Origin: an uncultured Planctomycetales bacterium
Lineage (GTDB): Bacteria > Omnitrophota > Gorgyraeia > Zapsychrales > JBDRMG01
Assembly: GCA_964478715.1 (NCBI GenBank)
Contig: CAYZIY010000007.1
Span: forward strand, 20,220-84,219
Length of the DNA stretch: 64,000 nt
Reading direction: 5' to 3'
Shown here: positions 9,636 through 53,960 of the stretch, one piece after another
How the letters are laid out: the number at the start of each line of letters is the position of its first letter
Position numbering within the stretch: position 1 is the stretch's first letter
Position numbers and translations under genes: made by a program
The notes under the pieces: model-generated
Told to the model about the DNA's origin: nothing
The model's input: the letters and a program-made list of their open reading frames with translations, nothing else
Database searches by the model: none

Positions 9636-10127
9636 GTGGAGAATAAGAATATGTCAAAGAGATCAAACAAACAATTTTTAATATCAGTCATTGGAGGTCA
9701 TAAGATTGATCATGTAATGGAGTGTAATGCCCACCAAATTGGAAAAATAATTGCAGAAATGGGGGCAATATTGGTATGTGGTGGACTCGATGGAGCAATG
9801 AAAGCGACTGCAAAAGGGGTCAAAGAGGGGAATGGTCTATCGATAGGCCTTCTTCCGGGAATAAACAAAAAAGATGCCAATCCTTATATTGATATTGCGT
9901 TACCAACTACAATAGGTTATGCGAGAAATGCTATGGTTGCGGCTGCGGCTGACTTGATTATTGCTCTGCCCGGTAGTCATGGAACAAGATCGGAAATTTC
10001 CTATGGTTTTGTCTACAAGAAACCAATTGTAGATTTCGGAAATTGGAATGTTGAGGGAATGATAAAAGTCAAAACACTCAACGAGTTGCGGCAGTTTATT
10101 GAAGATTATATGAAAAGAAAGTGTTAA
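9636..10127 (+). CDS. TIGR00725 / LOG-SLOG family Rossmann-fold protein
   Basis: GAILVCGGLDGAMKATAKGVKEGNGLSIGLLPG...LPGSHGTRSEI pattern is typical of TIGR00725/LOG. Confidence 0.7.
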   Translation: MENKNMSKRSNKQFLISVIGGHKIDHVMECNAHQIGKIIAEMGAILVCGGLDGAMKATAKGVKEGNGLSIGLLPGINKKDANPYIDIALPTTIGYARNAMVAAAADLIIALPGSHGTRSEISYGFVYKKPIVDFGNWNVEGMIKVKTLNELRQFIEDYMKRKC

Positions 10128-13712: not shown

Positions 13713-13728
13713 TAAGGAGAACGCAACG

Positions 13729-18005: not shown

Positions 18006-18585
18006 ACTCAAGCGCCAGCGTGACAGCTTGCAGCAATATGAGCATTATCTACCGACCTTACAGCTTAAGAAACAGCAGCTTCAAGCTAAAATTCTGGAAG
18101 TCAAAAGAGGATTGGCTGAAAGGGAAAAACTTTTGGATGAAAAAAAGCAATTCATTGAACAATGGAGCGGGTTGCTGGCCGACGTTCGCTTTGAAATCAG
18201 ACCATGGGTGATCCCTGTTCAGGTTGTAAAGGAAGATGTCAATATCGCAGGCGTCAGACTTCCGTTGTGCAAATCCATCCAGTATAAAGACATTGATTAC
18301 GATTTTTATGCAACTCCTTTTTGGACTGACCAAGCCATTGAGCGGATGAGAGATTTCTTTAATATCCTTATTGAAGTAAATCTGATCAAAAGACAAATAG
18401 ATATTCTGGCTCAAGAGTTACGCATAATTACTCAACGCGTTAATCTTTTTGAGAAGGTCAAAATACCCGAATGCATGGATCATATCAGAAAAATACGGAT
18501 TTATCTTGGTGATCAGCAGGCTAGTGCCGTTGGGATCAGTAAGGTTGCCAAGAAAAAGATCGAATCCCTCAGCGTGGTCGGATAA
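17977..18585 (+). CDS. atpD: V-type ATP synthase subunit D
   Basis: 202 aa, N-terminal [15 protein letters not shown]...LKKQQL coiled coil typical of subunit D. Confidence 0.85.
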
Positions 18586-18587
18586 CT

Positions 18588-37786: not shown

Positions 37787-40606
37787 ATGCGAAAGAAGGA
37801 AATAACAGAAAATTTAACTATGTGTTTGTTTGCGATTTTTTTTCTGTCTAGCGCAAAACCTCTCATGGCCTTTGAGCATCCTGCTTATACAATCAAGGCC
37901 CAACTGGATGTCTCAAGCAAACAGCTTGAGGTTCAACAAAAGGTTCGTTTCAGTAATCAATCGGCTAGAGCAGTCGAAGCCATCTATTTCCATGTTTATC
38001 CCAACCGAATTTTCTCAAAGGCCGAAAAAGTTTTCATGCAGCAGTATGCCAGTTATTTCAAAGTTGATCCCTTTCCGGATGGTTTTCAGCAGGGAAAGGT
38101 GGTATTCGGTTCGATTTTCGCAGAAAACCGGAATCTAAACTTTTCTTACGAAGGCGAAGATCAAACGCTTCTGAAAGTCGAATTGGACCAAGTTCTGGCA
38201 CCCGGTTCATCCGTAGAGGTCAATATGGAATATCAGCTAAGAATTCCCCATTCCTACGGTCGTTTTGGCTGGCATAATGATATTATTGCTCTCTCGCGAT
38301 TTTATCCGATTTTAGCTGTTTTATCCGATGAGGGATGGAATAAAAATCCATTCTATCCCTTTCACCGGCCCTTTTATTCTGAAGCCGCTTATTATCAGGT
38401 GCAACTGACTATGCCGTCCTCATGGGAAGCGATTCATAGCGGGGTTCTCAAAAAAGAAAAACAAAACGGCGCCAATAAACAGCTCGTGATTGAATCGGAC
38501 CATCCTATTCGCGAATTTACTGTTGCGCTAAGCCCTGATTACCGTTTAATCGAAAAAAAAATTGAGGGTGTTACGGTGAAGTCGTTTTACCTTCCAGGTG
38601 ATCGAGACCGTGCCAGTGAGGCCCTTTCCCATGCCGCGGATCTTATGAAATTTTATGCGGATCTTTTCAAACCTTATCCTTATGCGCAATTTAGCATCGC
38701 GCCGGTTTATCTGGGTTATGGTGGAGAACAGATGTCCAATATGATCTTGATCGATACCCGGGTTTATCAACTCCCCAGAATTCTCGATCGCCATTTCGAA
38801 TTTTTGATTGCGCACGAAACCGGTCATCAATGGTTTTATAATCTGGTGGGGATTGACGAGTTTCATCACATGTGGCTGGAAGAAGGGGTCAATTCCTATT
38901 TTATTTTGCAATATCTCGAAGATAAATACGGAGACAATGCGAAAGTCATCGAATGGCCCAGGCCGCTTGAGTGGTTTCTGCCCAGTTTTTCTTTCCGGCG
39001 CGCTCGCGATTTCCGATATAAAATGATTGCCCGCACGAAGATGAATTATTCGCTCTCCGGAAAACTATCGAGCTTCAAAGAGCCCAGCAGTATTTTTTCG
39101 ATTGCTTATGGAAAAGGATCGGCGGTTGTGGCTATGCTCAAAAGCGTTGCGGGCAGAGAGGCTTTTAGGAAAATTTTCCAGAGAATTTTTAAGCAATATT
39201 CCTATAGGAATCTTAGCTTGAGAGAATTTCAAGATATCTGCCATCATGAAAGCCAAATAGATTTGGAATATTTCTTTGATCAATGGTTGACGACTACCCA
39301 TAACTGTGATTATGCGGTCAATGGCATCAAAGACGCGAAGGTATTGATTGAAAACAGAGCCTCAATCGAAATGCCGCTTGATGTAAGAATCGATTATCAG
39401 GACGGGAATTCAAAGACAATCCAAACCGGCTTTGATGATCAGGTCAAAAATGTATTTGTCAATCCGCGAAAAAAAATTAAGAGAATTATTCTGGATCCGC
39501 AAAAAGAAATCTTGGATATTGACCGTACCAATAATATTTGGCCGCGACGTATTCACATCAAGGTGGTGCCTTTGTATTTGCCTGTTCACGATTTAGCCAT
39601 CACGCTTCCCGAAGATTCTTATAATGTGGTGATCGGTCCTGAGACAAGCGGCGGCGGCTTAGGCTTAAAGGCCTCTTTGCAGAAACCCATGGACTGGATG
39701 AGTTATGCGGCGACAACGTATGAATTCCGTGAGAGCATCCAGCACACTCGAGGGGGCTTTGTGCTCAAGAATGTCGCCCATCAGATGAATTCTCTAGGAT
39801 TTGAACTATTCAATAAATCCGATTATGACGGCGGTGATCAGGATTTGGTCGGCGGGAAGGTTTTTTTCAGAAGAGAATTAAAACTGGCTGCCTATAGCCT
39901 GAGTGATCTCAATGATCATGTGAGCCTTTATTTTCTGCGCAATCAGAGCCTCAATCGCGGGGCCTTAAGCGCGCAGGAAGATGAGCGCAATATTTCTTAT
40001 TTGAAAAAGAATGAAGCGATTTGGGGTACGGCGCTTCATCTGGCTTCCTGTGGGCCTCATCCGGATCCGCGTCAGGGCTATCGGGCCGATCTTATTTTAG
40101 AGAACTCAAACCATATTCTGGGAGGCACACAGTTCTTTTACAGAGGATCGGCAGATTTCAGTTATTACTATCCGTTGGCATTTAAATCCAAGCTGGCTTT
40201 TCGTCTGAAATACGGCTGGGGGTTTCCCGACGATAAAAATCTCTATGAACTCGGAGGATGGGACGGGTTAAGAGGATATGACCGTAAGACTTTGCGCGGC
40301 TCGCATGTGGCCCTGGGCGCTTTAGAGCTTCGTTTTCCGCTTCTTCAGAATATCAATGTATCTTTTGCGGATAATATTTTGCGGCTGGATGAAATCTCGG
40401 GCGTTGTTTTTGCCGAGACCGGCCAGAATTGGTTTGATGATATGGATGAAACAACTTTAAGAAAAGATGCCGGCGGGGGACTGCGTTTTATTTTCAGTGT
40501 CGGTTCATTTCTTGAAAAAGTGATGGTTCGAGTGGATGTGGCCCAGGCGATTAATGACAGCAGCGAAGAGACAAAAGTGTGGGCTGGCGTGAATCATGCT
40601 TTCTAA
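37787..40606 (+). CDS. Secreted M1-family zinc aminopeptidase domain fused to a C-terminal Omp85/bacterial-surface-antigen beta-barrel
   Basis: Signal peptide. HETGHQWFYNLVGIDEFHHMWLEEG equals the gluzincin HExxH-x18-E with WLxEG. The C-terminal block YYPLAFKSKLAFRLKYGWGF...ELGGWDGLRGY...ALELRFPL matches the PF01103 barrel motifs. Confidence 0.6.
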   Translation: MRKKEITENLTMCLFAIFFLSSAKPLMAFEHPAYTIKAQLDVSSKQLEVQQKVRFSNQSARAVEAIYFHVYPNRIFSKAEKVFMQQYASYFKVDPFPDGFQQGKVVFGSIFAENRNLNFSYEGEDQTLLKVELDQVLAPGSSVEVNMEYQLRIPHSYGRFGWHNDIIALSRFYPILAVLSDEGWNKNPFYPFHRPFYSEAAYYQVQLTMPSSWEAIHSGVLKKEKQNGANKQLVIESDHPIREFTVALSPDYRLIEKKIEGVTVKSFYLPGDRDRASEALSHAADLMKFYADLFKPYPYAQFSIAPVYLGYGGEQMSNMILIDTRVYQLPRILDRHFEFLIAHETGHQWFYNLVGIDEFHHMWLEEGVNSYFILQYLEDKYGDNAKVIEWPRPLEWFLPSFSFRRARDFRYKMIARTKMNYSLSGKLSSFKEPSSIFSIAYGKGSAVVAMLKSVAGREAFRKIFQRIFKQYSYRNLSLREFQDICHHESQIDLEYFFDQWLTTTHNCDYAVNGIKDAKVLIENRASIEMPLDVRIDYQDGNSKTIQTGFDDQVKNVFVNPRKKIKRIILDPQKEILDIDRTNNIWPRRIHIKVVPLYLPVHDLAITLPEDSYNVVIGPETSGGGLGLKASLQKPMDWMSYAATTYEFRESIQHTRGGFVLKNVAHQMNSLGFELFNKSDYDGGDQDLVGGKVFFRRELKLAAYSLSDLNDHVSLYFLRNQSLNRGALSAQEDERNISYLKKNEAIWGTALHLASCGPHPDPRQGYRADLILENSNHILGGTQFFYRGSADFSYYYPLAFKSKLAFRLKYGWGFPDDKNLYELGGWDGLRGYDRKTLRGSHVALGALELRFPLLQNINVSFADNILRLDEISGVVFAETGQNWFDDMDETTLRKDAGGGLRFIFSVGSFLEKVMVRVDVAQAINDSSEETKVWAGVNHAF

Positions 40607-43123: not shown

Positions 43124-44044
43124 ATGACAACACGCTGCGGTTTTGTTTCTATTGTGGGTCGGCCCAATGTCGGCAAATCCACGCTTTTAAATACCATTCT
43201 TAAAAGAAAAGTGGCGATTGTTTCCAAAATCCCCCAGACCACCCGTAATCAAATCCGGGGTATTTATAATGAAGAGCGCGGGCAGATTGTTTTTCTGGAT
43301 ACTCCGGGTATGCATTTAGCCAAAGACCGCCTGGATCAGATGATGAATAAAGACAGCCTGGCCACTTTAGAGGGAGCCGATTGCGTGATTCATGTGACAG
43401 ATCCGACCCGCGCCATTGGTCCGGAAGAGCGAATGGTTGTAGACCGCTTAAAGACTATTGAGGCGCCTGTGATTTTGGCTTTCAATAAAGCGGACTGTAA
43501 GCCGCGATTTATGGATCAGTATATTTCCTTGTGGGAGCAGGTGAAGCTCCGAAGCATTCAGGAATGTGACCATATGATTCTGCTTCCTATTTCGGCTAAG
43601 ACAGGCGTCAATATCGCGAAAATGATCGATCTAATTTTTGAAAAACTTCCCTCAAGCCCGCCCTTTTATCCGCTCACCCAATTTTCGGATATCCCTCAGC
43701 CTGTATGGATTGGCGATATTATTCGGGAAAAGTTCTTAGATTTGATGCGTCAGGAAATTCCCCATGCCCTGGCTGTGGTGATCGAAAACATGACCTTTAA
43801 AGCGAGTAAGGTTCTGGTCCTTCAGGTGGCCGTTTATGTAGAGCGGCCATCACAGAAAGAAATCGTGATCGGGAAAAAGGGTCAGATTTTGAAGAAAGTC
43901 GGCACAAAATCCCGTCAGGAACTCGAGCAGGAATTTAAACGCAAAATATTCTTGGAATTAAACGTGAAAGTCAAGAAAAACTGGCGGGACAATAGCGAAG
44001 TTCTCGAAAGATTAGGTTATGATTTGTTCTCTTCCCAGCAATGA
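43124..44044 (+). CDS. era: GTPase Era
   Basis: GRPNVGKSTLLN G1 motif, DTPG, NKAD, C-terminal KH domain. ATG one nucleotide after the nrnA stop. Confidence 0.9.
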   Translation: MTTRCGFVSIVGRPNVGKSTLLNTILKRKVAIVSKIPQTTRNQIRGIYNEERGQIVFLDTPGMHLAKDRLDQMMNKDSLATLEGADCVIHVTDPTRAIGPEERMVVDRLKTIEAPVILAFNKADCKPRFMDQYISLWEQVKLRSIQECDHMILLPISAKTGVNIAKMIDLIFEKLPSSPPFYPLTQFSDIPQPVWIGDIIREKFLDLMRQEIPHALAVVIENMTFKASKVLVLQVAVYVERPSQKEIVIGKKGQILKKVGTKSRQELEQEFKRKIFLELNVKVKKNWRDNSEVLERLGYDLFSSQQ

Positions 44045-44054
44045 TCCCCTGCTG

Positions 44055-46916
44055 TTACATTTCTTTCGGTTGAGTTAAGAGAATTTCGTCATCCGGGGTC
44101 AGAGCCAGCGGGTGATAATCCCAGGTATTTCCGCTTAAGGCCGAGGCGGCCGTGGCATTTAACGGCAGTTCCACAGAAAGAATTTCCGAAATAAAAACAA
44201 GGTCTCCCGGAGGTCGGCTACTTGAGAGCAGATAGCTGATATCGTAAATTTTTCTCGGCTCGCCATTAAAACTCAGCAAATCCCAGGGGGCCGCTTCTGT
44301 GACACCAAACGCCGATTGTCCTGACTGATCACGTCCGCGAACCCAGTAGGCGGAATGCCCCGAAAAATTATCTATTAAATTCTGTGGTTCCGGTGACAAT
44401 GCGCTGAAAGGAATAGGATTCTCCGTATATGACTGGTCCCAGTATCTGCTGTTGGGCTCAATCGGGCCGTGAAGAGGCCGGAATTCATTACCCAGCTGGA
44501 TGAAAGATCCGGTAACAACAGGTTCATTTTGATGCCAGCAGGATAAAGGATCTCCGCCGCAAGGCGGGGTTAAGTGATCTCCGGGATCGCTGTGAAAATT
44601 CCAGAGTTCTTCGGTGACATGCGGATCCCAGGCTCTGGGCCCAATAAGAGAGATATTATAATTAATCACATTGTTGCCAGAACTGTCTTCAACGGTCCCC
44701 TCGACGAAATTGGGCATTTGCGGCTCATCGGGATTTTCATCATCCGGAAACATATCATAAAGATAATTGTAGCCATCCTGGCCGTTTTCATCAAAGGCAT
44801 AATCGGTCTCAAAACCGGATCCTTCCGGTAGAGTGATATAGACAGCTGAAGCGGGATTGATAGGAGAGACTACTGTTTCTGCGTAAGGATAGTCTGGATG
44901 ATGATGCGGCATGCGCAGATAGCGGGGATAGCGAAAGCCTTCGCTTACTAAAAAGACATCATCGCTGACAATGGCGGCCGAGGGTTTTCGGGCATTTGTA
45001 TTGTAATGACCTTCCAGAATCAGATCGCCATGGATGACGAAGGTGGCTCCGTTGGGGGCACCGTCTTTTTGAGGGAGTTCTCCGGCATTATACACGGCAG
45101 CACCGACGTAATACTGCCTTTGATCCCCTTCGGATTCGATAAATTGTACGTCAGAAATATATAGCCCGTTTTCAGGCAGCCAGTCTGAAGAATCATTGGC
45201 CGCGCAGTCTTTCAAGGCCGACATGTTTGTTCGCAAAACTGTCATGGGAAGCCCGTCGACATGCCGGATAAAACTGCGCAGTTCAAAAAGGCTCTCTTCG
45301 TCTGATCCGCATTCTATCGGGGGAGCAATGGACCGATTCTCATAAGGGTTGTCAAAATCGAAACGCAGATCCGTATCATCGGTAACGGGAATTCCGTTTA
45401 CGCTGACTTCGAGGTAATAAGTACCGTTTTTTTCTTTGGCTGCGGCCACAAAGGCCTGGTCCGAATTTTTATTGAGAATCGAGTTCAGATTCATTTCAGG
45501 CGGGCTGATGGTGCTGACATCATCCTGGAACACTCCGGCGAGTCCTTCAATTCTATAAGGGGTATCTTCTCCGGAAGGATAATTTCGATTGATGCTTTCA
45601 CTGAAGGCAAAAAATTCCGGTTGCTTTTCGGAATCTGTCAACTGCATGCCGGTCACCCGCGGATCGCCCGGCGCATGACGGCCCATATACATGAATCTGT
45701 CATTGTAAGCGGTGCCAAAACGATTGGGGAGATAATAGTCGTTGATCTTGGGCATCGCCTCGTAATAATTTTCGTTATTGGAAGTTCCGTCGGCGCAGGT
45801 ATTTGTTGAATGGCAATTGATATCCTGCTGCCAGTACACATAGGCCCGGCTTTCTGACGACCCGTCCCAGGCCCCCGCATCAAACGGTGGATTTAAAAAT
45901 GGTGTCTGCGGCCAGGGCCAGATTGGCAGATTGTTGGATTCTTGGTCCCATTCGACGAATTTGCCTGTAGCGGTATCAAAGGCCAGCAAGCCCTGTCTGT
46001 CACCGGCATAATGGCCGTCCATTTTATTGATATAGTTTTCCTGATCCCACAGCCATCTATCTAGTGTATCGTTAGGTAAAATCAGAGGTCGGCGCAGATG
46101 GGGATAGATATTTGTATAATCATGACTATCGACTGCTCCTCCGCTGACAGGATCATATACCTGGCCGTCGATAAAATCATCAGGATGGACAAAGGGCGAG
46201 AAGGCATAGGAAATCTTTCCGGTGGCCTTAAGCTCATCCACGTTTTCGATGATGGTGTAATCATTCAAAAGGATATTGCCGTTAGTGTGGATTTTTCCGC
46301 CCTGGGCGTTAAGCAGCTGCCATCCGAGAGAGAGGTCTTCGTTGTTAAACAGGGCATATTGAAACATATCGGTGATTTCTATTTTCATGGCAAAAAGGCG
46401 GGTCACCGTATTATGAATGCCCAGAGCCAGGACATAGAGAGCGTTCTCATTGTCTTTACAATATGTTTTTAGGGCAAAAAGAGGATGGCCGTTTTCATCC
46501 AGCGCTCCGTAGTCAATAGAATCAATACCCCGGCTCACCAAATAAGGGAAATCATCAGCCGATAACTGGTGGTTAAATACAATACCGGGGATGTCGGAAT
46601 CTGTCGGGCAATTATCAACACAATGTTCAAGCGCGTTATTTTCGGTATTGAGAATATGGGTGGTGAATTCACCTGTGGATATCGATGCATTATTTTTGAT
46701 TTCATGATAGGCGTATTCTACGCCTTTACGGGCATGCAATTCCGCGGCCAAACTGTCATGCAGGATATGCCCTTGATTATTGCCCGAGACAGCCCGGGCA
46801 AAATTGGCCGCGGCATAGGTGACCACCAGGATCAAGACAGGATACAAAACCAGCGAGAAGGCGATGCCTTTTTGATTCTTTTTTCTTTGATCTTTTTTTA
46901 AAATTATTTGGCTCAT
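44055..46916 (-). CDS. Giant (953 aa) secreted or pilus-associated protein with a TadE/TadG-like pseudopilin N-terminus. Paralogue of 49211-52015
   Basis: N-terminal KGIAFSLVLYPVLILVVTYAAANFARAV resembles the TadE-like anchor (RGAAAVEFALVLPVLLLLLFGIVEFG). Shared blocks with the paralogue include KIHTNGNILLNDYTIIENV...FVHPDD, ILEGHYNTN...SEGFRYPRYL..HHPDYPYAE and a C-terminal PWDLLSFN. Confidence 0.6.
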   Translation of the reverse strand: MSQIILKKDQRKKNQKGIAFSLVLYPVLILVVTYAAANFARAVSGNNQGHILHDSLAAELHARKGVEYAYHEIKNNASISTGEFTTHILNTENNALEHCVDNCPTDSDIPGIVFNHQLSADDFPYLVSRGIDSIDYGALDENGHPLFALKTYCKDNENALYVLALGIHNTVTRLFAMKIEITDMFQYALFNNEDLSLGWQLLNAQGGKIHTNGNILLNDYTIIENVDELKATGKISYAFSPFVHPDDFIDGQVYDPVSGGAVDSHDYTNIYPHLRRPLILPNDTLDRWLWDQENYINKMDGHYAGDRQGLLAFDTATGKFVEWDQESNNLPIWPWPQTPFLNPPFDAGAWDGSSESRAYVYWQQDINCHSTNTCADGTSNNENYYEAMPKINDYYLPNRFGTAYNDRFMYMGRHAPGDPRVTGMQLTDSEKQPEFFAFSESINRNYPSGEDTPYRIEGLAGVFQDDVSTISPPEMNLNSILNKNSDQAFVAAAKEKNGTYYLEVSVNGIPVTDDTDLRFDFDNPYENRSIAPPIECGSDEESLFELRSFIRHVDGLPMTVLRTNMSALKDCAANDSSDWLPENGLYISDVQFIESEGDQRQYYVGAAVYNAGELPQKDGAPNGATFVIHGDLILEGHYNTNARKPSAAIVSDDVFLVSEGFRYPRYLRMPHHHPDYPYAETVVSPINPASAVYITLPEGSGFETDYAFDENGQDGYNYLYDMFPDDENPDEPQMPNFVEGTVEDSSGNNVINYNISLIGPRAWDPHVTEELWNFHSDPGDHLTPPCGGDPLSCWHQNEPVVTGSFIQLGNEFRPLHGPIEPNSRYWDQSYTENPIPFSALSPEPQNLIDNFSGHSAYWVRGRDQSGQSAFGVTEAAPWDLLSFNGEPRKIYDISYLLSSSRPPGDLVFISEILSVELPLNATAASALSGNTWDYHPLALTPDDEILLTQPKEM

Positions 46917-46942
46917 GATTATTGCTCGTTTTGCTTACTTTA

Positions 46943-47812
46943 TCAGCGTATTTCTTTAGGCGCCGTTCGGCAGTCATCAGGGCAAGTTACTGATGTTTCA
47001 TCACCGCTGCAAATTCCGTCACCGCAGCGCGTGCAATCTTCCGGACAGCTTATGGCGGTTTCATCACCGTTACACATTTCGTCACCGCAATGTTGACAAT
47101 CTTGAGCACAATTGTCCGGGTCTTCATCAATGTCGCAGTTTCCATCGCCGCAAAAAGTTTGAGGCTCACAATCCGCGGGGCAGGTGGTTTCGCTCTCAGT
47201 GGCATCGCAGACGCCGTCACCGCAGACCACACACACGCCGCAGTCCTGAGGGCAGGAATAACAGTCTTCGGATTGGTCACATTTATCATTGCCGCAGAAC
47301 TCGCAAGTGGTCATATCTTGCTGACAGTTTTCGCAGGTTTCGTCGGGGTCTTCTATGCCGTTTCCGCAGTCCGGCAGTTCATCGCAGTCCTGGGGGCATT
47401 CTTCGAACGTTTCGCGGATATCGCATAGGCCGTTACCGCAGAGAATGGAGGTATAAATATTATCGATATCATTAAGCTGAACTTTTGTTTCGATGTTCAT
47501 GGCTCTGATAGAGGGATAAAGCTCTTGATCGGGTGTGATTTTGATGTGCACCGTCTGGTTACTCAAGTTTCGGGTTACTTCCAGAGAATCAGCCACACCC
47601 AGAGTGCGCCACGAGCGGATTTCGGGGTCAGGAACCTCATCCGCGCCGGTTTGCATCCCGCCGCCAGGTTGGCCGCCTCCGGGGAGGCTATCCGCCCAAG
47701 ATGTCGCCGATGCGAGGCTTATGCAAAACCAAACGATTAAAAAGAAAAAGACGCTAAAAAAGGAAAGATTTTTTGCTAGGATGTTTATCTTGAATGTTTT
47801 CATTGAGAGCAT
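46943..47812 (-). CDS. Secreted cysteine-rich repeat protein with about 7 tandem CGDGxC-x8-10-CPxDC modules
   Basis: Signal peptide MKTFKINILAKNLSFFSVFFFLIVWFCISLASA. Repeats include CGNGLCDIRETFEECPQDC, CGDGVCDATESETTCPADC, CGDGNCDIDEDPDNCAQDC and CGDGICSGDETSVTCPDDC. The ORF-track N-terminal extension into the upstream gene is probably spurious, so the start is uncertain (47812 or 47803). Confidence 0.55.
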   Translation of the reverse strand: MLSMKTFKINILAKNLSFFSVFFFLIVWFCISLASATSWADSLPGGGQPGGGMQTGADEVPDPEIRSWRTLGVADSLEVTRNLSNQTVHIKITPDQELYPSIRAMNIETKVQLNDIDNIYTSILCGNGLCDIRETFEECPQDCDELPDCGNGIEDPDETCENCQQDMTTCEFCGNDKCDQSEDCYSCPQDCGVCVVCGDGVCDATESETTCPADCEPQTFCGDGNCDIDEDPDNCAQDCQHCGDEMCNGDETAISCPEDCTRCGDGICSGDETSVTCPDDCRTAPKEIR

Positions 47813-47819
47813 GTTCTTT

Positions 47820-48905
47820 CTATTTTTCATTATTTTCTGGACCCTCATTATGGACAATAATCCCATCGGCGATATACGTATGCAGAGGATTGACGACAAA
47901 ATTATAGCTTGTAACTGTTTCATGAATTTCGTCGATCGAATTAATGCGAAAGTCACGGCCTTGTTCATCGGTCAGAAAGTCTCCTATCCGCAAAGTGTCC
48001 AACCGCACATAACGGCCCCGGCTTAAGACCGGATGATTAGGAGAGACTTTGATCGAATCATTGATGATCCAGTATTTATGAGTATTATTGTGCGACAGGG
48101 TGCCTGTGACACGGTCGGGTTGAAATTTTTGACTGGAAGCATCGAAGGCCAGAACGATATCCCCGACAGCGATATTTTCAATTGGCTTGGTGGATCCCCC
48201 GGCCATCGTGATTTTGGTCCCGGCCAGAAAACAGTTTCCGGCGCCGCAGGTTCCACAGTCGGCGCTGCACGAGCAGGCGGTCTCTCCGGCCTCACCACAG
48301 CAGACCCCATCCCCGCAGACAATTGCCCCGCACTCCGCGCAATTGCACACACTTTCTCCTCGGGTGGATTCACAGACCCCGTCACCGCAGCAATCGGTGC
48401 CGGTGGCTATATAATCTTCCTCGCACCAGGAGCAGTCTTCACCAAGATCCACATCTACTTTGCCGTCTCCGCAGAAATCTTCGTAACAAAGCACCCGCTC
48501 TATCAATTGCCCGTCGGTTGCGCCGCCGGAAGCCACATAATATTCATAATAACAACCGATATCATTAAGCGCGCCGAATTTAATATTGTCGTATTCATTA
48601 ATATAGCTTTCGCCGACTTTGGTGGGAATTTTAAAGCGGATCAGATGGCCCGAGCACGGGGGAGAATCCAATTCGTCACAGTTTTTGATGGTAACCATTT
48701 TGATATCCGATTGGCTAAGTATATTGGCCATACGCCCGACCGCATTACGGGCATCGGAGACCTGCTGAATAGCTTCATCCGCGATCTTGTAGCTTTCGCG
48801 TGTTTGAATCAAGGATGTGGCAAAGGCCCCGCCGATGATCACCAGAATAGTCATCACGGCCAGGATCTCAGTCAGGGTAAAGGCGTTTATTCTAAAGATT
48901 TTCAT
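47820..48905 (-). CDS. Type IV pilin/pseudopilin-like protein with extracellular Cys-rich repeats and a C-terminal Hint (bacterial intein-like) domain
   Basis: MKIFRINA-FTLTEILAVMTILVIIGG is a class III signal with Glu at +5. Repeats CGDGKVDVDLGEDCSWC, CGDGVCESTRGESVCNCAEC, CGDGVCCGEAGETACSCSADC. Hint block CFLAGTKITMAGG...IAVGDIVLAFD...VSPNHPVL...HTYIADGIIVHN ending in HN then E. Confidence 0.65.
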   Translation of the reverse strand: MKIFRINAFTLTEILAVMTILVIIGGAFATSLIQTRESYKIADEAIQQVSDARNAVGRMANILSQSDIKMVTIKNCDELDSPPCSGHLIRFKIPTKVGESYINEYDNIKFGALNDIGCYYEYYVASGGATDGQLIERVLCYEDFCGDGKVDVDLGEDCSWCEEDYIATGTDCCGDGVCESTRGESVCNCAECGAIVCGDGVCCGEAGETACSCSADCGTCGAGNCFLAGTKITMAGGSTKPIENIAVGDIVLAFDASSQKFQPDRVTGTLSHNNTHKYWIINDSIKVSPNHPVLSRGRYVRLDTLRIGDFLTDEQGRDFRINSIDEIHETVTSYNFVVNPLHTYIADGIIVHNEGPENNEK

Positions 48906-49107
48906 TGCCGGCTCCTAAACAAAAAACCCATCCGCAAAGGATGGGTTTTAAAGAGTTGACAGTATGTTGGCGGCCAGGCTGTCTCACCGATTAAATCGGC
49001 GGACCCTATAGCTTTGCGTCCTATCCTTGCGGATTCCGCTGAAAACTTAAGCGGATCTACCGTTGTTAGCGGCGGAAGTTTACCTTTATCAGCATCTAAT
49101 AGTACTC
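48906..49107 (-). promoter_or_regulatory. Conserved structured 5' leader RNA (copy 1) with a terminator-like hairpin abutting the RBS. Candidate riboswitch or attenuator
   Basis: Minus-strand reading: ...GCGGAATCCGCAAGGATAGGACGCAAAGCTATAGGGTCC...GCCAACATA...AAAACCCATCC-TTTGC-GGATGGGTTTTTTGTTT-AGGAGCCGGCA-ATG. Homologous to copy 2 (53659-53916) with compensatory stem changes. Confidence 0.45.
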
Positions 49108-49150
49108 TAGGATAAGTATAACACATAGATATGTCCCGACAAGAAGAGCA
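49108..49150 (-). promoter_or_regulatory. Sigma70-like promoter (TTGTCG, 18 nt, TGTGTTATACT extended -10) driving leader copy 1
   Basis: The -35, spacer and extended -10 arrangement is conserved with copy 2 (TTGTCC, 17 nt, TGTGTTATACT). Confidence 0.4.
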
Positions 49151-49210
49151 TACCAAAAATGGGAGTGAAAAGGAAGCGTTTTTCTAAAAACTACTTCTAA
49201 AAACTGCCTT

Positions 49211-52015
49211 TTATGTGGGGGGTTCGTATTTATTTCTCCAATGATCAGAAGTCCATGCAATTTCCACTACCCTTGATCGCAAACCCAGCATCTCTCCGGG
49301 AGGGTAGATCGGATCCGCAAGCCCTTCCCGGCGCAGATAATCCTGATCGTATTCATGGGCCGGCTGGGGATTGCTGGCCAAAAGGTCCCAGGGAGTCGAT
49401 TTATTATCTGTAGCCCGGCAAGGATGGGGATCCTTATCGGAGTTCCATCCAATCTGGGTATCTAAGTCAGAAAAGGGAATGGCAAAGTTCTTGTAAGAAT
49501 TCTGGTTGCAATCTCGGTTGTTGGCCGTCGTGGGAACCAGGCCGACAGGAGGAAACTCATTACCCAGTTGAATGACCGAGCCGATAATAACCGGCTGGAT
49601 TTCCGTCCAGCTGGAAGGGTCGGGAGCATTAAGGAGATCTCCAAGTTCTGTATAATAAGACCAGCGTTCCAAGAGATCAGGGTCAGGGGCATATTTTCCG
49701 ATCAAAGAGACATTATACACATAAGAATTCGGAGTTTCGGGGTCATTATCATGATCGACTGGGCCGATCGTATCCTGATCGGATTCCCAGGGTACTTTGT
49801 TTGCCATATTGCCATCTTGTTCTGCGAGCCAGTTGGCAACGCCTGGAATAAAATCGGCACGGAAACCATGTCCATCCTGGTTAAACTCTTCAAAATCCAT
49901 TCCACTTAATTCTGCTTCGGGATAGGACGGATGATGCTGGGGCCACGTTAATTTCCGGGGATAATCAAAATCTTCGGAAACTAAAGAGATTCTATTGGAG
50001 GCAATGATGGCTGCCGATTGCTTGGTCCAATCAGCATAGCCAGCATCAGCCTCATGGACATAATTGACATGGCCTTCCAAAATGGCATTATTGGCAATAA
50101 CGGTTAGTCCTCCTTGGGGCAATTGCCGCGCGTTGTAGAGCGCTACTCCGATCGGCTTGTCCGTGACCTGTGGAGAGTCTGCGGCAATAATGATCCCGCT
50201 CGAAGGCAGAAAATTTGGCTGTCCGCCTTCAGGAGGATTAACGACGCCAAATTGATGACAGCGATTTAAGTGTTCGATATTCATGCGAATCGTATTCTCG
50301 GGCAGTCCCGATTTGGGATTGATGAATTCTTTTTTTTCAAAGAGAGTGTCATTTATATCTTCGGAGCAATTTAGATCTGCGCAGCATCTTTCGTTTTTCA
50401 TCCATGAAGTCGTATCGTTTAATTTGATACTATTATTTCCCACATTGATAATATATTCTTTAAGCGCGCTTTCTTCAATCTCTTGCTCGATAGTCATTTG
50501 AATTTGTCCCGCACTGTGGCTGGATGAGTCACTTGAACTGTTGATTGTCTTTAAGGTATCAAGATGTATTTGGGGCACGGTGATTTCTTCAACACCGTCT
50601 GTGCTGTCCTTGAGCACATTAATTTGATCTTCCACAACGGCTGCCAGGCCTGTGATGGTGTCGTCTAAGGGATTATCCGGATCATCGCCTTGATCTATTT
50701 CAATGGGAAAATGGGACACATAATTATCCCAGTCCGACTCTTGATCAACAGAGTCGGTTAACCGGACAGGGGCTGTAAGATTACGTCCGTAATAAACTTC
50801 TTTATCATAGGGGGAGGAATCCGGCAGGATACTGGGAATAAAGTAACCGTTGATCTTGACATTGGCTTCATAATAGTTGGCATTATTATTTCCGTAAGGA
50901 TCTTGCCAGGCGCATGTATTTGTTTCATAACAACTGAGATCTTGTTCCCAATAGGAATTAACGAGGGTATTATGCCATTCAGGTTTATTATTAATCCAGC
51001 TTCCTTCATACCACATATTTTGATCACCCCAAGCAGGATCCCATATATAAGGAGAAGTGTCTTCCGGCACAGGTGCCGTGAAATTCGTATCCCAATAAAA
51101 AGGCCAGACGGGTTGCTTAATGTCCTGTGTTATTGTCTCTCCCTTCCAGGGGATAATACCATTTGTTGACATACGAAAAAGCCCCCGACGCATCCCTGGA
51201 TAATGGCCGTCCATGCTGTTGACATAATTGCCTTGGTTTAGTCCCACAGGAACCACTTCACCGCCCGAATAGGTTAAGTCATTCGGGTTAACGTGCGGCC
51301 AACGTCTGGTCTGATACTTGTTTTTATCATCCGGGTGGACAAAAGGTGTCATTTCCCATTCAAATTTTCCTGCTGTTGATATTTCACTGACATTTTCGAT
51401 TTCCACAAAATCATTGAATTTAATTTTCCCGTTGGCGTGGATTTTCGCCTGGCCGGCATTGATTTTTTTCCATCCGAAATCCGCATCATTCGAGTAAAAG
51501 GCCAGATAATCAAAAAGAGGCGTTCCTTTTATGATCCCCACAAAAAGACGGGTTTGGCCTTCTCTGTTGGTTTCTGCGAAACTGGTTGATTTCACTAGCG
51601 CATAATAGGCCCCGTCTTCCATGTAGACTTTAGCTTGGAAAATACTTCCCGTTTCTTCGTCACGAACCTGATACACATAGTCTTCGTTTTTATTAATCTG
51701 GGCGTCGGGAACATACAAATCAGCGGTGGCCGGCGGGTCATCGTGGGGGGCCAATGTGTCAGTCCCTGCTGCGATTTTGTGTGTCAGAAACGGATTACTG
51801 GTATATTGCCGGGCGGCAATTTCGGCAAAGACATATTCCACGCCGCTCATGGCGGTCATCTCGGTTTGATTGCGGGTATAAATCCGCCGGAAATGACGGG
51901 TATTATGCGTAGATTGCACAAAAACCGTTATTCCGTATCCTGCCAGCAGAATCAACAGAGGCAGGACAATCACATTCATGAGAAATTGTCCGTTTTTGTT
52001 TGAAATGCGTATCAT
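49211..52015 (-). CDS. Giant (934 aa) secreted or pilus-associated protein with a TadE/TadG-like N-terminus. Paralogue of 44055-46916
   Basis: N-terminal NGQFLMNVIVLPLLILLAGYGITVF (TadE-like). Conserved blocks as listed for the paralogue. RBS AGGGAGA upstream. Confidence 0.6.
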   Translation of the reverse strand: MIRISNKNGQFLMNVIVLPLLILLAGYGITVFVQSTHNTRHFRRIYTRNQTEMTAMSGVEYVFAEIAARQYTSNPFLTHKIAAGTDTLAPHDDPPATADLYVPDAQINKNEDYVYQVRDEETGSIFQAKVYMEDGAYYALVKSTSFAETNREGQTRLFVGIIKGTPLFDYLAFYSNDADFGWKKINAGQAKIHANGKIKFNDFVEIENVSEISTAGKFEWEMTPFVHPDDKNKYQTRRWPHVNPNDLTYSGGEVVPVGLNQGNYVNSMDGHYPGMRRGLFRMSTNGIIPWKGETITQDIKQPVWPFYWDTNFTAPVPEDTSPYIWDPAWGDQNMWYEGSWINNKPEWHNTLVNSYWEQDLSCYETNTCAWQDPYGNNNANYYEANVKINGYFIPSILPDSSPYDKEVYYGRNLTAPVRLTDSVDQESDWDNYVSHFPIEIDQGDDPDNPLDDTITGLAAVVEDQINVLKDSTDGVEEITVPQIHLDTLKTINSSSDSSSHSAGQIQMTIEQEIEESALKEYIINVGNNSIKLNDTTSWMKNERCCADLNCSEDINDTLFEKKEFINPKSGLPENTIRMNIEHLNRCHQFGVVNPPEGGQPNFLPSSGIIIAADSPQVTDKPIGVALYNARQLPQGGLTVIANNAILEGHVNYVHEADAGYADWTKQSAAIIASNRISLVSEDFDYPRKLTWPQHHPSYPEAELSGMDFEEFNQDGHGFRADFIPGVANWLAEQDGNMANKVPWESDQDTIGPVDHDNDPETPNSYVYNVSLIGKYAPDPDLLERWSYYTELGDLLNAPDPSSWTEIQPVIIGSVIQLGNEFPPVGLVPTTANNRDCNQNSYKNFAIPFSDLDTQIGWNSDKDPHPCRATDNKSTPWDLLASNPQPAHEYDQDYLRREGLADPIYPPGEMLGLRSRVVEIAWTSDHWRNKYEPPT

Positions 52016-52054
52016 GAGTTATTTTTCTCCCTCTCGAGATTGATCCTAATTACT

Positions 52055-52783
52055 TCATTCGGGTTCTCCCCAGTTATTGAATTCACAATTAAGTTCTTGT
52101 CCGCCTTCGGCTACATAGATCGACAAATCAACAAGGTCTGATATGTTGATTCCGTATTCATTACCTCCGCTACCTGAATTATTAACATTGGCGCGCTCGG
52201 GGTCTTCGGGAGGCGGGCAGATTGTATTTGGTGGCTCTGTTTCAGTACAGGCATCACTGCCTTCAGCACAACAGTTGGGCAGATCACCAAACATATAAGC
52301 GGATAATAAATCTAGGTCCGCTTTATTGACTATTCCGTCTCCGGTGAGCTCTCCGCATTCCGGGGCCGGCGGGCAGTCTTGAGCGCACCATTGCGAATTT
52401 TCGCTGGGGGGATCGCAAAAACCATCCCCGCAGACGGTAATGGTCAGAGGATCCGAGTCATTATCCGGATAAACAGTGGTGCTGAGCTTAATTTCCCCGC
52501 CTGATGGATAAGAGGAAGAGCTTATCTCCGGTTGAGCGGCGTAGAAACCGATCTGGACTGTTTTTGGGATATAGGTTGTGGAAAAAGTACCCTTTTCGAT
52601 GCGGCTGGCGATTACCTGAGAGGAGCGCACGGTTTCGACTGGTTGGGCGTAGGCAATTTGACCGCCTATAAGGAAAATCCAAAAAAAGACAGTTATCCCG
52701 ACAACCATCACAAATAGCATACTGAGAAAGGGCCTAATCTCATTTAACGTTTTTACATTAGGATAATCCATTAATCTAATCAT
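52055..52783 (-). CDS. Signal-anchored small protein with one Cys-rich repeat and a dockerin-like calcium-binding repeat pair
   Basis: TM anchor FLSMLFVMVVGITVFFWIFLIGG. CGDGFCDPPSENSQWCAQDC repeat. TGDGIVNKADLDLLSAYMFG and NNSGSGGNEYGINISDLVDLSIYV fit the dockerin D-x-D/N-x-DG-x-V/I-N-x2-D-x3-L-x2-Y pattern. Strong RBS AAAGGAG. Confidence 0.55.
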   Translation of the reverse strand: MIRLMDYPNVKTLNEIRPFLSMLFVMVVGITVFFWIFLIGGQIAYAQPVETVRSSQVIASRIEKGTFSTTYIPKTVQIGFYAAQPEISSSSYPSGGEIKLSTTVYPDNDSDPLTITVCGDGFCDPPSENSQWCAQDCPPAPECGELTGDGIVNKADLDLLSAYMFGDLPNCCAEGSDACTETEPPNTICPPPEDPERANVNNSGSGGNEYGINISDLVDLSIYVAEGGQELNCEFNNWGEPE

Positions 52784-52815
52784 CGCACGACTCCTTTTAT
52801 GGTTTTCTTTCTGTC

Positions 52816-53658
52816 CTATCTGTCCACGGGGGTCTCTCCGGTATCACAGTCGGCTGCGCAGGAAGAAACCGTTTCTCCGATACTGGCATCGCAAAAGCGG
52901 TCACCGCACCAGCCGAAATTCTCTTGTGCGGCCGCGACCTGATTTTCGCAGATACCGCAGTCGGCCGGACATTTTAAGCAATCTTCATGGATATCACAGA
53001 ATCCGTTCGGGCAGCAGACACCTCCGCAATCCTCAGGGCAGGACAGGCAGTTTTCTCCCAAATCCTCTTCAGGGTTGGGACCGCCAGTTTCCGGAATGCC
53101 GTCTTGGCAGATTCGGTCGCCGCAGGTACAGCGGTCTTCGCAATCAGGAAAACAGGTGTCGCAGTCTTCGCCGTAGTCTTCATTACAAGTACCATCGCCG
53201 CAATAGGGCTGGCTTTCATCGCAAATAACCTGTTTGTAGAGTTGATTGTCATTGACCAAGTATCTGTACCAGCAATATTGGTAACATTCATTCTCAGAAA
53301 TACAAGCGCCGAAAGCGACTCGGCCGTCATTGATTTCTAATGTATCCACAATAGGAGTTTTGAAGATTAAATAACTTCCTTGACAGACCGGCTCTCCCTC
53401 TTCGGGGCATGGATGGTGAACCGGAGCGCCCGGTTTATTGCTCTGGGGGGGCACCGACTGCTGAACATGGGCAGCGACACGCTGTAAAATATTTTCCAGA
53501 TGAATATTTTGATCGCTGCGGATTTTCGATATAATCGACGCCTGCATTCCTTTTTGCGCGGCAGCCGAAATCCCGCCGATGACAATGACCGAAGCCGCGA
53601 TGGAGACGACAAGCTCGGTTAGCGTAAATGCTTCTTTATTTTTTGTGTATCTTTTCAT
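52816..53658 (-). CDS. Type IV pilin/pseudopilin-like protein with 4 extracellular Cys-rich repeats
   Basis: MKRYTKNKEA-FTLTELVVSIAASVIVIGG prepilin-type N-terminus. Repeats CGDGTCNEDYGEDCDTCFPDC, CGDRICQDG...CLSCPEDC, CPNGFCDIHEDCLKCPADC, CGDRFCDASIGETVSSCAADC. The ORF-track start at 53712 would translate through the leader hairpin. The ATG at 53658 has RBS GGGAGAAG. Confidence 0.6.
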   Translation of the reverse strand: MKRYTKNKEAFTLTELVVSIAASVIVIGGISAAAQKGMQASIISKIRSDQNIHLENILQRVAAHVQQSVPPQSNKPGAPVHHPCPEEGEPVCQGSYLIFKTPIVDTLEINDGRVAFGACISENECYQYCWYRYLVNDNQLYKQVICDESQPYCGDGTCNEDYGEDCDTCFPDCEDRCTCGDRICQDGIPETGGPNPEEDLGENCLSCPEDCGGVCCPNGFCDIHEDCLKCPADCGICENQVAAAQENFGWCGDRFCDASIGETVSSCAADCDTGETPVDR

Positions 53659-53916
53659 GTCTTCTCCCAATTTCTGTTGTAACCGAAAAAAATCCCACTC
53701 CTTAAACTTCAAGGAATGGGTTTATCCGTTTTGTTGGCAGCTGGCTGCCCCTCTGCTTTCTTGCCTGCCTTTCAGAAAACAAGCGAAAACAAGAAGCGGG
53801 GTCCTTTAGCTTTGTGCCCCATCCTTGCGGTCCCGCGTGGGTTTCTCGCGGGATCTCCGGTCTCAAAGGATTGCAGGCCGGAGAATAGTTTACCTTTTTC
53901 AACACCAATGAATTGT
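53659..53916 (-). promoter_or_regulatory. Conserved structured 5' leader RNA (copy 2) with a terminator-like hairpin abutting the RBS
   Basis: Minus-strand reading: ...CCCGCGAGAAACCCACGCGGGACCGCAAGGATGGGGCACAAAGCTAAAGGACCCC...GCCAACAAA...AAACCCATTCCTT-GAAGTTT-AAGGAGTGGGATTTTTTT-CGG...GGGAGAAGAC-ATG. Confidence 0.45.
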
Positions 53917-53960
53917 TAATAAAAGTATAACACATTTTTTCTTGCGGACAATTCAGCATC
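53917..53960 (-). promoter_or_regulatory. Sigma70-like promoter (TTGTCC, 17 nt, TGTGTTATACT) driving leader copy 2
   Basis: Same architecture as the 49108-49150 promoter. Confidence 0.4.

Follow-up and report, generated by a model that had tools for sequence, protein, structure and literature searches.

Two tandem gene modules of an uncultured Omnitrophota bacterium, found in the window (the whole stretch of 64,000 nucleotides that was analysed), are likely to be alternative, fast-evolving cassettes of tip adhesins for a type IV pilus whose machine is encoded elsewhere, and their expression would be gated by c-di-GMP. The sequence-only reading had proposed an undescribed surface-filament system that fits no textbook operon. 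This does not hold, because the leaders belong to the known c-di-GMP-I riboswitch class and the solved pilin ComZ is an analogue of the large proteins (PMC6561018). What is new is how the parts are combined, together with the accessory domains, while the kind of system is already known. Several additions are unusual: one pilin carries a Hint domain at its C-terminus, the small protein of relatives has a dockerin, and the aptamers contain large inserts.

Organization of the modules

Six co-directional open reading frames on the minus strand form two paralogous three-gene modules, and both the ORF coordinates (Table 1) and the paralogue alignments agree with what had been read from the sequence. 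Each module encodes a protein of the prepilin type (G-1/F+1/E+5) that bears Cys-rich repeats, a second, Sec-secreted protein with Cys repeats, and a protein of ~940 aa, called the giant here. The giants share 29% identity across their full length (E 8e-87) and the pilins match at E 1e-19, whereas the match between the small proteins is confined to the Cys repeats (E 1e-6). The CGDGxC...CxxDC repeat is found three times in pilinA, twice in pilinB, once in smallA, and six times in smallB, and is absent from the giants. The true start of pilinA is the ATG at 53658, as the listed TTG at 53712 falls within the terminator. The two cassettes are arranged in tandem and are anciently duplicated.

Table 1. 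Features of the two modules, with positions in the window
Feature	Position	Strand	Description
Module 1 promoter	53924..53951	-	TTGTCC, 16 nt, extended -10 TGtgTTATACT; promoter scan
Module 1 c-di-GMP-I aptamer	53732..53903	-	58-nt insert in P1a, long P1b loop
Leader 1 intrinsic terminator	53694..53720	-	12-bp stem and U7; terminator scan
pilinA	52816-53658	-	280 aa; prepilin-type N-terminus KEA/FTLTE, ~150-aa globular domain with conserved Cys pair, 3 Cys-rich repeats
smallA	52055-52783	-	242 aa; Sec signal peptide, beta-rich domain, one Cys repeat, degenerate dockerin-like pair of Ca-loop segments
giantA	49211-52015	-	934 aa; GspK/PilX/ComZ-class minor pilin with large beta-rich insert, assigned by paralogy to giantB and N-terminal signature
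Module 2 promoter	49115..49142	-	TTGTCG, 16 nt, TGtgTTATACT; promoter scan and sequence
Module 2 c-di-GMP-I aptamer	48966..49094	-	52-54-nt insert in P1a
Leader 2 intrinsic terminator	48923..48949	-	11-bp stem and U tract; terminator scan
pilinB	47820-48905	-	361 aa; prepilin N-terminus INA/FTLTE, globular domain, 2 Cys repeats, C-terminal Hint domain
pilinB Hint domain	47847-48233		residues ~225-353; Cys1, SPNH, terminal HN
smallB	46943-~47827	-	~290 aa, start uncertain; Sec signal peptide, beta-rich domain, 6 Cys-rich repeats replacing dockerin
giantB	44055-46916	-	953 aa; GspK/PilX/ComZ-class minor pilin; N-terminal helix at residues 10-76, pilin beta-sheet, beta-solenoid-rich body

Promoters and riboswitches

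The promoter scan and the riboswitch models bear out that the same promoter and a conserved structured leader precede each module and place both under shared RNA control. Both promoters follow the pattern TTGTC[CG]-16-TGtgTTATACT, and the 11-mer TGTGTTATACT of the module 1 promoter also occurs upstream of module 2, of L003 module 2, and of L004 module 1 (L numbers denote the loci of relatives). Judged by sequence and covariance, the leader is a class I c-di-GMP riboswitch. The module 1 aptamer matches clan CL00126 at 31.2 bits (E 3.5e-4), below the Rfam gathering score, and that of module 2 reaches 35.3 bits with RF01051, whose gathering score is 35. With R1, a custom covariance model, they score 62 bits (E 1e-13) and 62.7 bits, respectively, within the range of 57-68 bits that R1 gives to compact GEMM-I aptamers from unrelated metagenomes. 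In the aptamer alignment 93.7% of cells are paired, compared with at most 46% for slid control structures, and 12 of the 21 pairs show compensatory change. The inserts of 52-58 nt in both window aptamers might impair function. Aptamers with terminators also lie upstream of the modules of relatives, namely L003 (two), L004 (two), L005, and L001.

In leader 1 the terminator 5' arm CCCAUUCCUU is complementary to the aptamer segment AAGGAUGGGG, and the duplex (-15.3 kcal/mol) nearly equals the hairpin (-15.8 kcal/mol). In leader 2 the hairpin reaches -15.6 kcal/mol and the duplex with AAGGAUAGG is weaker at -8.7 kcal/mol. Across seven leaders, the best duplex of the 5' arm is with the aptamer segment AAGGAUGGG in five, and in four of these it is about iso-energetic with the terminator hairpin; by the same energy comparison, L003 module 1 has no antiterminator. 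Once the 3' arm is blocked, the antiterminator appears in the minimum free energy fold of only three of six leaders. Because the 5' arm can pair with AAGGAUGGG in most leaders, OFF logic is the likeliest, and we infer that the riboswitch is probably an OFF switch that leaves the cassette on at low c-di-GMP.

Pilins and small secreted proteins

Within the window, the two pilins are the only carriers of the FTLTE class III motif. The motif scan, together with N_methyl matches in eight of nine pilin family members (best 1.3e-7), substantiates the suggestion of pilin-like genes with Cys repeats. The window pilins themselves fall under the Pfam N_methyl cutoff (pilinA E 0.0027-0.0057, pilinB E 0.023), and the E+5 residue is invariant in all nine members. 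Moreover, a PDB search with the family profile hit the alpha1 helix of type IV pilins (E 3e-4), and the N-terminus alone of pilinB matches TIGR02599, Verru_Chthon cassette protein C (E 5e-5). The structure prediction for pilinB gave a low-confidence model (pLDDT 30). The suspected intein-like domain is present in pilinB as PT-HINT, which scores 49.1 bits where the cutoff is 27.7 (E 8.9e-13), and is followed by just 8 residues. Two relatives have PT-HINT domains as well, L005 in its pilin and L004 in module 3.

The signal anchor that had been proposed for the small proteins is not supported, since the Sec signal peptides of both are of the ordinary kind and have cleavage sites of the AxA type. 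The proposed dockerin-like domain stands in part: orthologues of smallA match Dockerin_1 above the Pfam cutoff (44.5 and 27.4 bits against 22.9), whereas smallA itself, dockerin-like stretch included, has no Pfam match. Its Ca-loop pair was recognised by alignment with the Dockerin_1-carrying orthologues.

Giant proteins

By modelled fold and N-terminus, the giants belong to the GspK/PilX/ComZ class of minor pilins. The AF2 model of the giant is confident (pLDDT 82.5, pTM 0.84) and has a 67-residue N-terminal helix that packs on a pilin-type sheet, with similarity to GspK and ComZ. ComZ was the sole significant Foldseek match (E 2.6e-4), at 9-16% sequence identity and with the giants almost twice its size; structure comparison shows further resemblance to GspK, XcpX, ice-binding solenoids, and tapirins. 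In 73 of the 84 giant family members a hydrophobic stretch of 20 residues follows [KR]G, and none has E+5; the N-terminal signature of the family reads NG/QFLMNVIVLPLLILL in giantA. The window giants have no PilX_N match in Pfam and are unrecognised by the Pfam and NCBIfam models of the GspK/XcpX/PilX families, and PilX_N matches three of 41 distant family members (best 5.8e-8). Domain searches with Pfam and NCBIfam found no TadE, TadF, or TadG in the module proteins. The TadE/TadG-like anchor once assigned to the ~940-aa proteins was rejected on this ground and on that of the fold and the Gly-1 N-terminus without Glu+5. The giants consistently adjoin a prepilin gene, and an N_methyl gene also follows the distant family member L129.

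Conservation in Omnitrophota

The locus lies between PAC2 and era, and the frame of PAC2, one to three modules, and era-DHH-PfkB-M1/Omp85 recurs in L003, L004, L005, L127, and L128. The number of modules at this site varies from one to three among Omnitrophota relatives, mostly with the riboswitch. In L001 an RHS toxin gene adjoins the module, on the opposite strand. Identity to relatives is 48-66% for the flanking genes and 24-33% for the giants, and the module proteins diverge about twice as fast as the flanking genes. The fast divergence and the varying cassette number suggest that the cassettes have diversified in what they bind, be it a host, prey, or a surface.

Proposed mechanism and alternative explanations

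Alternative sets of minor pilins are an established concept. In the proposed mechanism, a conventional minor pilin (Gly-1, Phe+1, Glu+5) would display the disulfide-rich CGDGxC...CxxDC repeats, and the giant (Gly-1, no Glu+5) would carry on its pilin domain a beta-solenoid-rich body serving as adhesin or receptor, whose size would permit a position at the filament tip only. The small protein is exported by Sec and combines Cys repeats with a dockerin in the module-1 type, while the module 2 form has the Cys repeats alone; it probably acts as a partner of the tip complex in the periplasm or at the surface. Both pilins would be cut by a PilD-type peptidase, the pair would enter the core priming complex in the manner of PilA2-ComZ or GspJ-GspK, and the complex would be extruded on the pilus tip. 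Ligand binding to the aptamer would let the terminator form, confining expression to low c-di-GMP.

Each cassette encodes two pilins only, short of the four core minor pilins that a complete priming complex normally requires, which counts against a tip cassette. As had been noted before, pilus ATPase, platform, and secretin genes are absent from the window, here judged by the 20 other ORFs that are largest or likeliest, and no pilus machinery lies in the flanks retrieved for relatives. Which machine the cassettes serve is therefore something that we infer, most likely a type IVa pilus encoded elsewhere; nearly all Omnitrophota are reported to have such pili (PMC10066038). The earlier view of cargo, tip, or adhesin modules for a pilus encoded elsewhere gains support from the pilin-based proteins and the lack of an assembly machine of their own.

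It is unlikely that the cassettes instead encode a ComZ/PilA2-type DNA receptor of a competence pilus for natural transformation. ComZ is the best and sole significant structural match, and it is a DNA-binding protein with a small pilin as its partner (PMC6561018); the pilinB N-terminus is weakly similar to ComGD/ComGE. However, size and low identity separate the giants from ComZ, tapirin adhesins and ice-binding proteins are further matches to the same solenoid fold, fast divergence and one to three copies are expected for variable surfaces and not for DNA, and competence systems have nothing equivalent to the Cys-repeat and dockerin partners. A pseudopilus tip of a type II secretion system or Tad-type pilus is quite unlikely: a 900-aa solenoid body with such partners is hard to fit on a periplasmic pseudopilus, TadE/TadF/TadG matches are lacking, and pilins of the GspK class are also known outside such systems, as PilX of type IVa pili and ComZ of the Thermus competence pilus. 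What favours it are the resemblance of the giant fold to GspK and XcpX, the weak match of pilinB to the pseudopilin-like protein C, and the frequency of Tad systems in Omnitrophota.

The giants might also be Sec-inserted, signal-anchored adhesins independent of any pilus, with incidental pilin-like N-termini, as the missing Pfam pilin domain and the lack of machinery nearby would allow. The conserved [KR]G signature, the modelled helix on a pilin-type sheet, and the constant prepilin neighbour make this improbable. Delivery cassettes for polymorphic toxins (RHS/PT-HINT) are highly improbable, despite the PT-HINT domains and the L001 neighbour, since domain searches found RHS/YD repeats or a toxin domain in none of the six proteins, the residues after the pilinB Hint domain leave no room for cargo, and the L001 RHS gene is missing from all other relatives.

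Comparison with known systems

The closest analogue of the tip cassettes is ComZ-PilA2 of the Thermus thermophilus competence pilus tip (PDB 6QVI), where ComZ is a GspK-like pilin whose large ice-binding-protein-like beta-solenoid fits at the tip only, and which pairs with PilA2, the smaller pilin encoded next to it (PMC6561018). In contrast, the window giants have ~940 aa against ~550 aa in ComZ, and the cassettes lie outside any pilus gene cluster, are tandemly duplicated, and are riboswitch-controlled. The partner pilin bears Cys-rich repeats and in one copy the Hint domain, and there is an extra secreted protein with dockerin or Cys repeats. GspK, XcpX, and PilX, which cap the GspI-J-K or PilV-W-X priming complex, share with the giants Gly-1 without Glu+5, the PilX_N domain of distant family members, and the position of largest subunit with an inserted domain. 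The insert of the giants is beta-solenoid-rich rather than alpha-helical and several times larger, and the cassette encodes one other pilin, not three. The tapirins of Caldicellulosiruptor, adhesins from a type IV pilus locus, show no detected sequence similarity to the giants; they are not pilins, lack a class III N-terminus, and bind cellulose.

Regarding control, Cdi-2-4 upstream of pilA1 in Clostridioides difficile is likewise a c-di-GMP riboswitch and terminator platform that gates pilus genes (PMC6366702). Unlike it, the window aptamers are class I, not class II, carry large inserts, control accessory tip cassettes and not the major pilin, are probably OFF and not ON switches, and occur in 2-3 independent copies per locus. 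Myxococcus xanthus has three alternative minor-pilin/PilY1 clusters, similarly several interchangeable tip-complex gene sets per pilus machine. The window sets differ in having two pilins each and no PilY1 homologue, in their tandem arrangement at one conserved chromosomal site, and in their riboswitch control.

Organization of the paired modules

Six co-directional ORFs make up two paralogous three-gene modules, as the sequence-only reading had recognized. Each module encodes a prepilin-type protein (pilinA or pilinB), a small secreted Cys-repeat protein (smallA or smallB), and a giant protein of ~940 aa (giantA or giantB). Intra-module genes are separated by 26–39 nt or overlap slightly, and each trio is thus considered an operon. 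The giants share 29% identity over their full length (E 8e-87), the pilins match at E 1e-19, and the similarity of the small proteins is confined to the Cys repeats. The true start of pilinA, the ATG at 53658, yields the 280-aa product that public collections contain. The TTG at 53712 selected by the ORF finder was rejected, as it falls within the leader terminator. At the other end, giantB and era are convergent with ~10 nt between their stop codons (window 44044–44055), where a recognisable terminator was not found; a giantB read-through transcript would run antisense to era.

Coordinates of the module genes, leader elements, and neighboring features in the window
Feature	Position	Strand	Product or note
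pilinA	52816–53658	minus	280 aa
smallA	52055–52783	minus	242 aa
giantA	49211–52015	minus	934 aa
pilinB	47820–48905	minus	361 aa
smallB	46943–~47827	minus	~290 aa
giantB	44055–46916	minus	953 aa
Leader 1 aptamer	53732–53903	minus	upstream of module 1 (pilinA, smallA, giantA)
Leader 1 terminator	53720–53694		strong, intrinsic
Leader 2 aptamer	48966–49094	minus	upstream of module 2 (pilinB, smallB, giantB)
Leader 2 terminator	48949–48923		strong, intrinsic
PilZ-domain protein	35744–37786	plus	680 aa
M1/Omp85 fusion	37787–40606	plus	939 aa
V/A-type ATPase operon	~12050–20354	plus	
V/A-ATPase A/B subunits	14921–18005		
V/A-ATPase I subunit	18588–20354		

Giant proteins

Word-indexed searches recover only the giants themselves and one relative, and with pilinA only pilinA itself, so that the giants could pass for orphans. 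This was ruled out by an exhaustive profile search, which finds 249 cluster representatives of the family at E<=1e-3 and 62 at E<=1e-30. The window giants have no match at E<=1 in Pfam (including PilX_N, PF14341, and T2SSK) or NCBIfam. Among 41 distant relatives, three match PilX_N (best 5.8e-8), and Dockerin_1 also matches three distant members of the family. The N-terminus carries [KR]G and then a hydrophobic stretch of 20 residues in 73 of 84 family members, and Glu+5 is present in none of the 84. Gly-1 without Glu+5 is the GspK/PilX signature.

AlphaFold gave a confident model of giantB from an alignment of 43 sequences (pLDDT 82.5, pTM 0.84), in which an N-terminal helix of 67 residues precedes a sheet of pilin type and a long β-rich body. 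The giants thus show a trait of the GspK/PilX/ComZ class, a large domain set into the sheet of a pilin fold. The highest structural resemblance score is to ComZ of Thermus thermophilus (10.3 over 277 aligned residues), followed by DUF3494 ice-binding solenoids (8.7–9.7), tapirin adhesins (8.5–9.0), GspK (8.1), and XcpX, PilE, PilX, and other pilins (5–6.7), and ComZ is also the sole significant Foldseek match. ComZ itself carries an ice-binding-protein-like solenoid on a GspK-like pilin domain, fits in the fibre only at the tip, and binds the small pilin PilA2 (PMC6561018). The fold resemblances of giantB are identical to the set published for ComZ (PMC6561018).

Two other identities have been considered for these proteins. 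The TadE/TadG pseudopilin anchor suggested for the giants from their N-termini did not survive the domain searches, since TadE (PF07811) is absent at E<=1 from all six module proteins. The RHS/YD-repeat polymorphic toxins were likewise rejected because none of the six matches an RHS/YD or toxin domain. Signature and model together identify the ~940-aa proteins as predicted tip pilins of the ComZ/GspK class. Each module supplies only one prepilin partner, and the core minor-pilin set is not encoded alongside the giants. A pilus ATPase, platform, or secretin was not found among the 20 largest or likeliest other ORFs of the window, in agreement with the earlier reading, and pilus machinery was not found in the fetched flanks of relatives.

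Prepilin-type proteins and the Hint domain

Class III prepilins are recognized by a short basic leader ending in Gly or Ala, Phe+1...Glu+5, and a hydrophobic helix of ~20 residues. All of these are present in pilinA (cleavage motif KEA/FTLTELVVSIAASVIVIGG) and pilinB (INA/FTLTEILAVMTILVIIGG), the two genes for which such an N-terminus had been proposed, and the FTLTE motif occurs nowhere else in the entire 64-kb window. Across nine pilin homologues Glu+5 is invariant in a common N-terminus, MKNK-G/FTLxE. A domain of ~150 aa is also common to them; it contains a conserved Cys pair and the motif FKxPxVD...YGA...CxYxY and precedes CGDGxC...CxxDC repeats of varying copy number. The window pilins score 16.6–17.7 and 14.7 bits, under the Pfam N_methyl (PF07963) gathering cutoff of 21.2 bits; in the family, N_methyl is recovered at E<=0.1 in eight of nine members, with 1.3e-7 as the best value. 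Type IV pilins of the PDB are matched by the family profile over α1 only, and the AF2 model of pilinB, from a two-sequence alignment, has a pLDDT of 30.4.

The intein-like domain noted previously is confirmed as a PT-HINT domain (PF07591) at the pilinB C-terminus, scoring 49.1 bits (cutoff 27.7). Its catalytic residues are present, namely Cys1 (CFLAGT...), SPNH, and the terminal HN (VHN), and only eight residues lie beyond it. Because residue +1 is Glu, self-cleavage or thioester chemistry is expected rather than splicing. Hint domains recur in the family, with two in the pilin of the single-module relative L005 and one, as a separate ORF, in the third module of the relative L004. As far as could be found, a prepilin-Hint fusion has no prior description.

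Small secreted proteins

The small proteins begin with Sec-type signal peptides (AYA/QP, ASA/TS, and similar), continue with a β-rich domain, and carry one Cys repeat, after which the module-1 type has a dockerin. The dockerin-like domain of the sequence-only reading is present in the smallA orthologues of L004 (7391–8017, 44.5 bits) and of a second relative, L003 (7645–8418, 27.4 bits), both over the Pfam Dockerin type I (PF00404) cutoff of 22.9 bits, but smallA of the window has no Dockerin_1 match in the Pfam search. It aligns across the dockerin region of its orthologues and is degenerate there, and smallB has six Cys repeats where the dockerin would be. The small-protein gene is missing from L005 and is thus accessory. 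A dockerin protein within a minor-pilin operon has not been described before, as far as could be found.

Riboswitch leaders

Each aptamer is preceded by the promoter TTGTC[CG]-16-TGtgTTATACT and followed by an intrinsic terminator, with 26–36 nt from the U tract to the start codon; the shared promoter and conserved structured leader claimed earlier for both modules are real features. In Rfam, the leader 2 aptamer scores 35.3 bits against RF01051 (GEMM-I; gathering 35), and leader 1 has only a clan match of 31.2 bits. Both scores are low because of 52–58-nt insertions in the P1a hairpin. With R1, a covariance model from insert-trimmed aptamer copies, both leaders score 62–63 bits, within the 57–68 bits of compact GEMM-I aptamers upstream of unrelated genes on seven metagenome contigs. 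These seven loci, which serve as the control set, come from a metagenome scan with the aptamer 5' motif that otherwise gave mostly chance matches; since ordinary GEMM-I aptamers there precede unrelated genes, the motif is not cassette-specific. An unrelated metagenome contig, L037 (Ga0268278_1002300, 2879–10080), carries five c-di-GMP-I aptamers within 10 kb, in tandem pairs upstream of paralogous Cys-rich lipoproteins of 712 and 791 aa.

In an alignment of 18 aptamers, pairing holds in 93.7% of cells, with compensatory change at 12 of 21 pairs, whereas slid control structures reach at most 46% of cells paired. These figures are biased in favour of the model because the alignment was fitted to it. 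The P1, P1a, and P1b helices are backed by covariation, and the GNRA loop (GCAA/GUAA) on P1a is kept in all copies. Conservation extends to AAAGGUAAAC, to the central A in GACGC-A-AAGC or GGCAC-A-AAGC, and to a GC left unpaired ahead of CAAC and the 3' strand of P1, which correspond to the known ligand contacts G20, A47, and C92 of Vc2. The related c-di-GMP-I-GGC variant (RF03167) was weighed and rejected, with 34.5 and 31.2 bits against a gathering cutoff of 59; at the A47 position the leaders have A, against G in the variant consensus, which argues for ordinary class I sites. From sequence and covariation, the leaders are classified as predicted c-di-GMP class I riboswitches of the ordinary type.

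Lineage-specific inserts occupy fixed places in the aptamers of both window leaders, L003 (6045–6365), and L004 (10712–10920). One type, of 52–58 nt, adds two hairpins within P1a ahead of the retained GNRA loop, and the other, of 100–230 nt, lies between P1a and the A47 junction. GEMM-I aptamers with 50–230-nt inserts at conserved positions should interest riboswitch specialists.

The 5' arm of the terminator (CCCAUCC or CUCAUCC) is conserved among leaders, and the loops are variable. Its best aptamer partner in five of seven leaders is AAGGAUGGG, the 3' strand of P1a, and in four of those five the duplex energy is close to that of the terminator hairpin; in module 2 the duplex is weak. A strict thermodynamic test, with the 3' arm blocked, was mixed, with the antiterminator in the MFE fold of three of six leaders. 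Ligand binding that locks P1a would leave the terminator free to form, which is OFF-switch architecture, and the balance tips slightly and tentatively toward OFF. In C. difficile the class I c-di-GMP switches are all OFF, and the class II switch of pilA1 is ON (PMC6366702). A protein with an N-terminal PilZ domain (PF07238, E 1.9e-7) is encoded 6 kb from the cassettes, and a similarly sized gene lies at the equivalent place in L005. PilZ domains are c-di-GMP receptors.

Genomic context and evolution

The window otherwise has housekeeping content, including V/A-ATPase, GlmS, anthranilate synthase, Era, NrnA-like DHH, and PfkB, and among named relatives a Candidatus Omnitrophota MAG (L003) comes closest. 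The modules lie in a common frame between PAC2 and era-DHH-PfkB-M1/Omp85, and their number varies: L003 has two, L004 has three, L005 has a single module of two genes, and L001, L127, and L128 have at least one each. Leaders with riboswitch and terminator precede both modules of L003, the first and third of L004, and those of L005 and L001. GiantA best matches the first giant of L003 and giantB the second, which places the duplication before that split. Flanking proteins are 48–66% identical to those of relatives and the giants 24–33%; the cassette site is, judged by these identities, a fast-evolving island within a conserved frame.

Two further features are recorded. The M1 aminopeptidase-Omp85-type outer-membrane barrel fusion has an unusual architecture and is kept at 49–59% identity in L003, L005, and L127. 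In L001 (5209–12414), a 1817-aa RHS/YD-shell toxin and a HEPN/nucleotidyltransferase pair lie between the pilin cassette and era, and the site thus takes other cargo too.

Proposed mechanism

Sequence analysis shows two operons, predicted to be independently transcribed, each with a class I c-di-GMP aptamer and terminator and each encoding a Glu+5 prepilin and a GspK/ComZ-class giant pilin. PilD would process both pilins, which may then pair in a J/K-like (PilA2/ComZ-like) manner and cap a type IV filament from machinery encoded elsewhere. For the Omnitrophota, the literature reports type IVa pili nearly throughout and Tad systems in many members (PMC10066038). The solenoid body could serve as the binding surface, and the Cys-repeat stalks, dockerin protein, and Hint domain might add to the tip or help it mature. 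Alternative specificities would come from duplication and rapid divergence, and low c-di-GMP probably favours cassette expression.

A bolder and unlikely proposal treats the cassettes as swappable pilus "warheads" that determine which host or prey is recognized by ultra-small, host-dependent Omnitrophota, with every cassette gated independently by c-di-GMP. The Hint domain would turn the pilin C-terminus into a thioester for covalent ligation to a partner or target, the dockerin-bearing secreted subunit would clip further components onto the tip, and the disulfide-rich mini-repeats would form a rigid stalk; insert-bearing aptamers might integrate a second signal. No pilus is known to use such assembly chemistry. 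The preferred reading remains the capping of a type IV filament by tip pilins. Omnitrophota are uncultured nanobacteria thought to be attached to or to prey on other cells, and among their "symbiosis" traits type IV pili are the most conserved (PMC10066038). A conserved site with one to three fast-evolving, proposed tip-adhesin cassettes offers concrete candidates for partner-cell recognition, and the predicted riboswitches would tie this attachment hardware to c-di-GMP in a way that is testable in vitro without cultivation.

Comparison with known systems

The suggestion of an undescribed surface-filament system is not upheld, as parallels are already known for all the major elements, namely GEMM-I riboswitches close to pilus genes, tip pilins of the ComZ type, and alternative sets of minor pilins. 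New are the ComZ-like giant pilin family, with its size of ~250 clusters and no Pfam or NCBIfam model or annotation, and its riboswitch-gated tandem cassettes at one conserved site, in a phylum whose members are putative epibionts. The prepilin with a Hint domain, the partner with a dockerin, and the aptamers with inserts are new as well.
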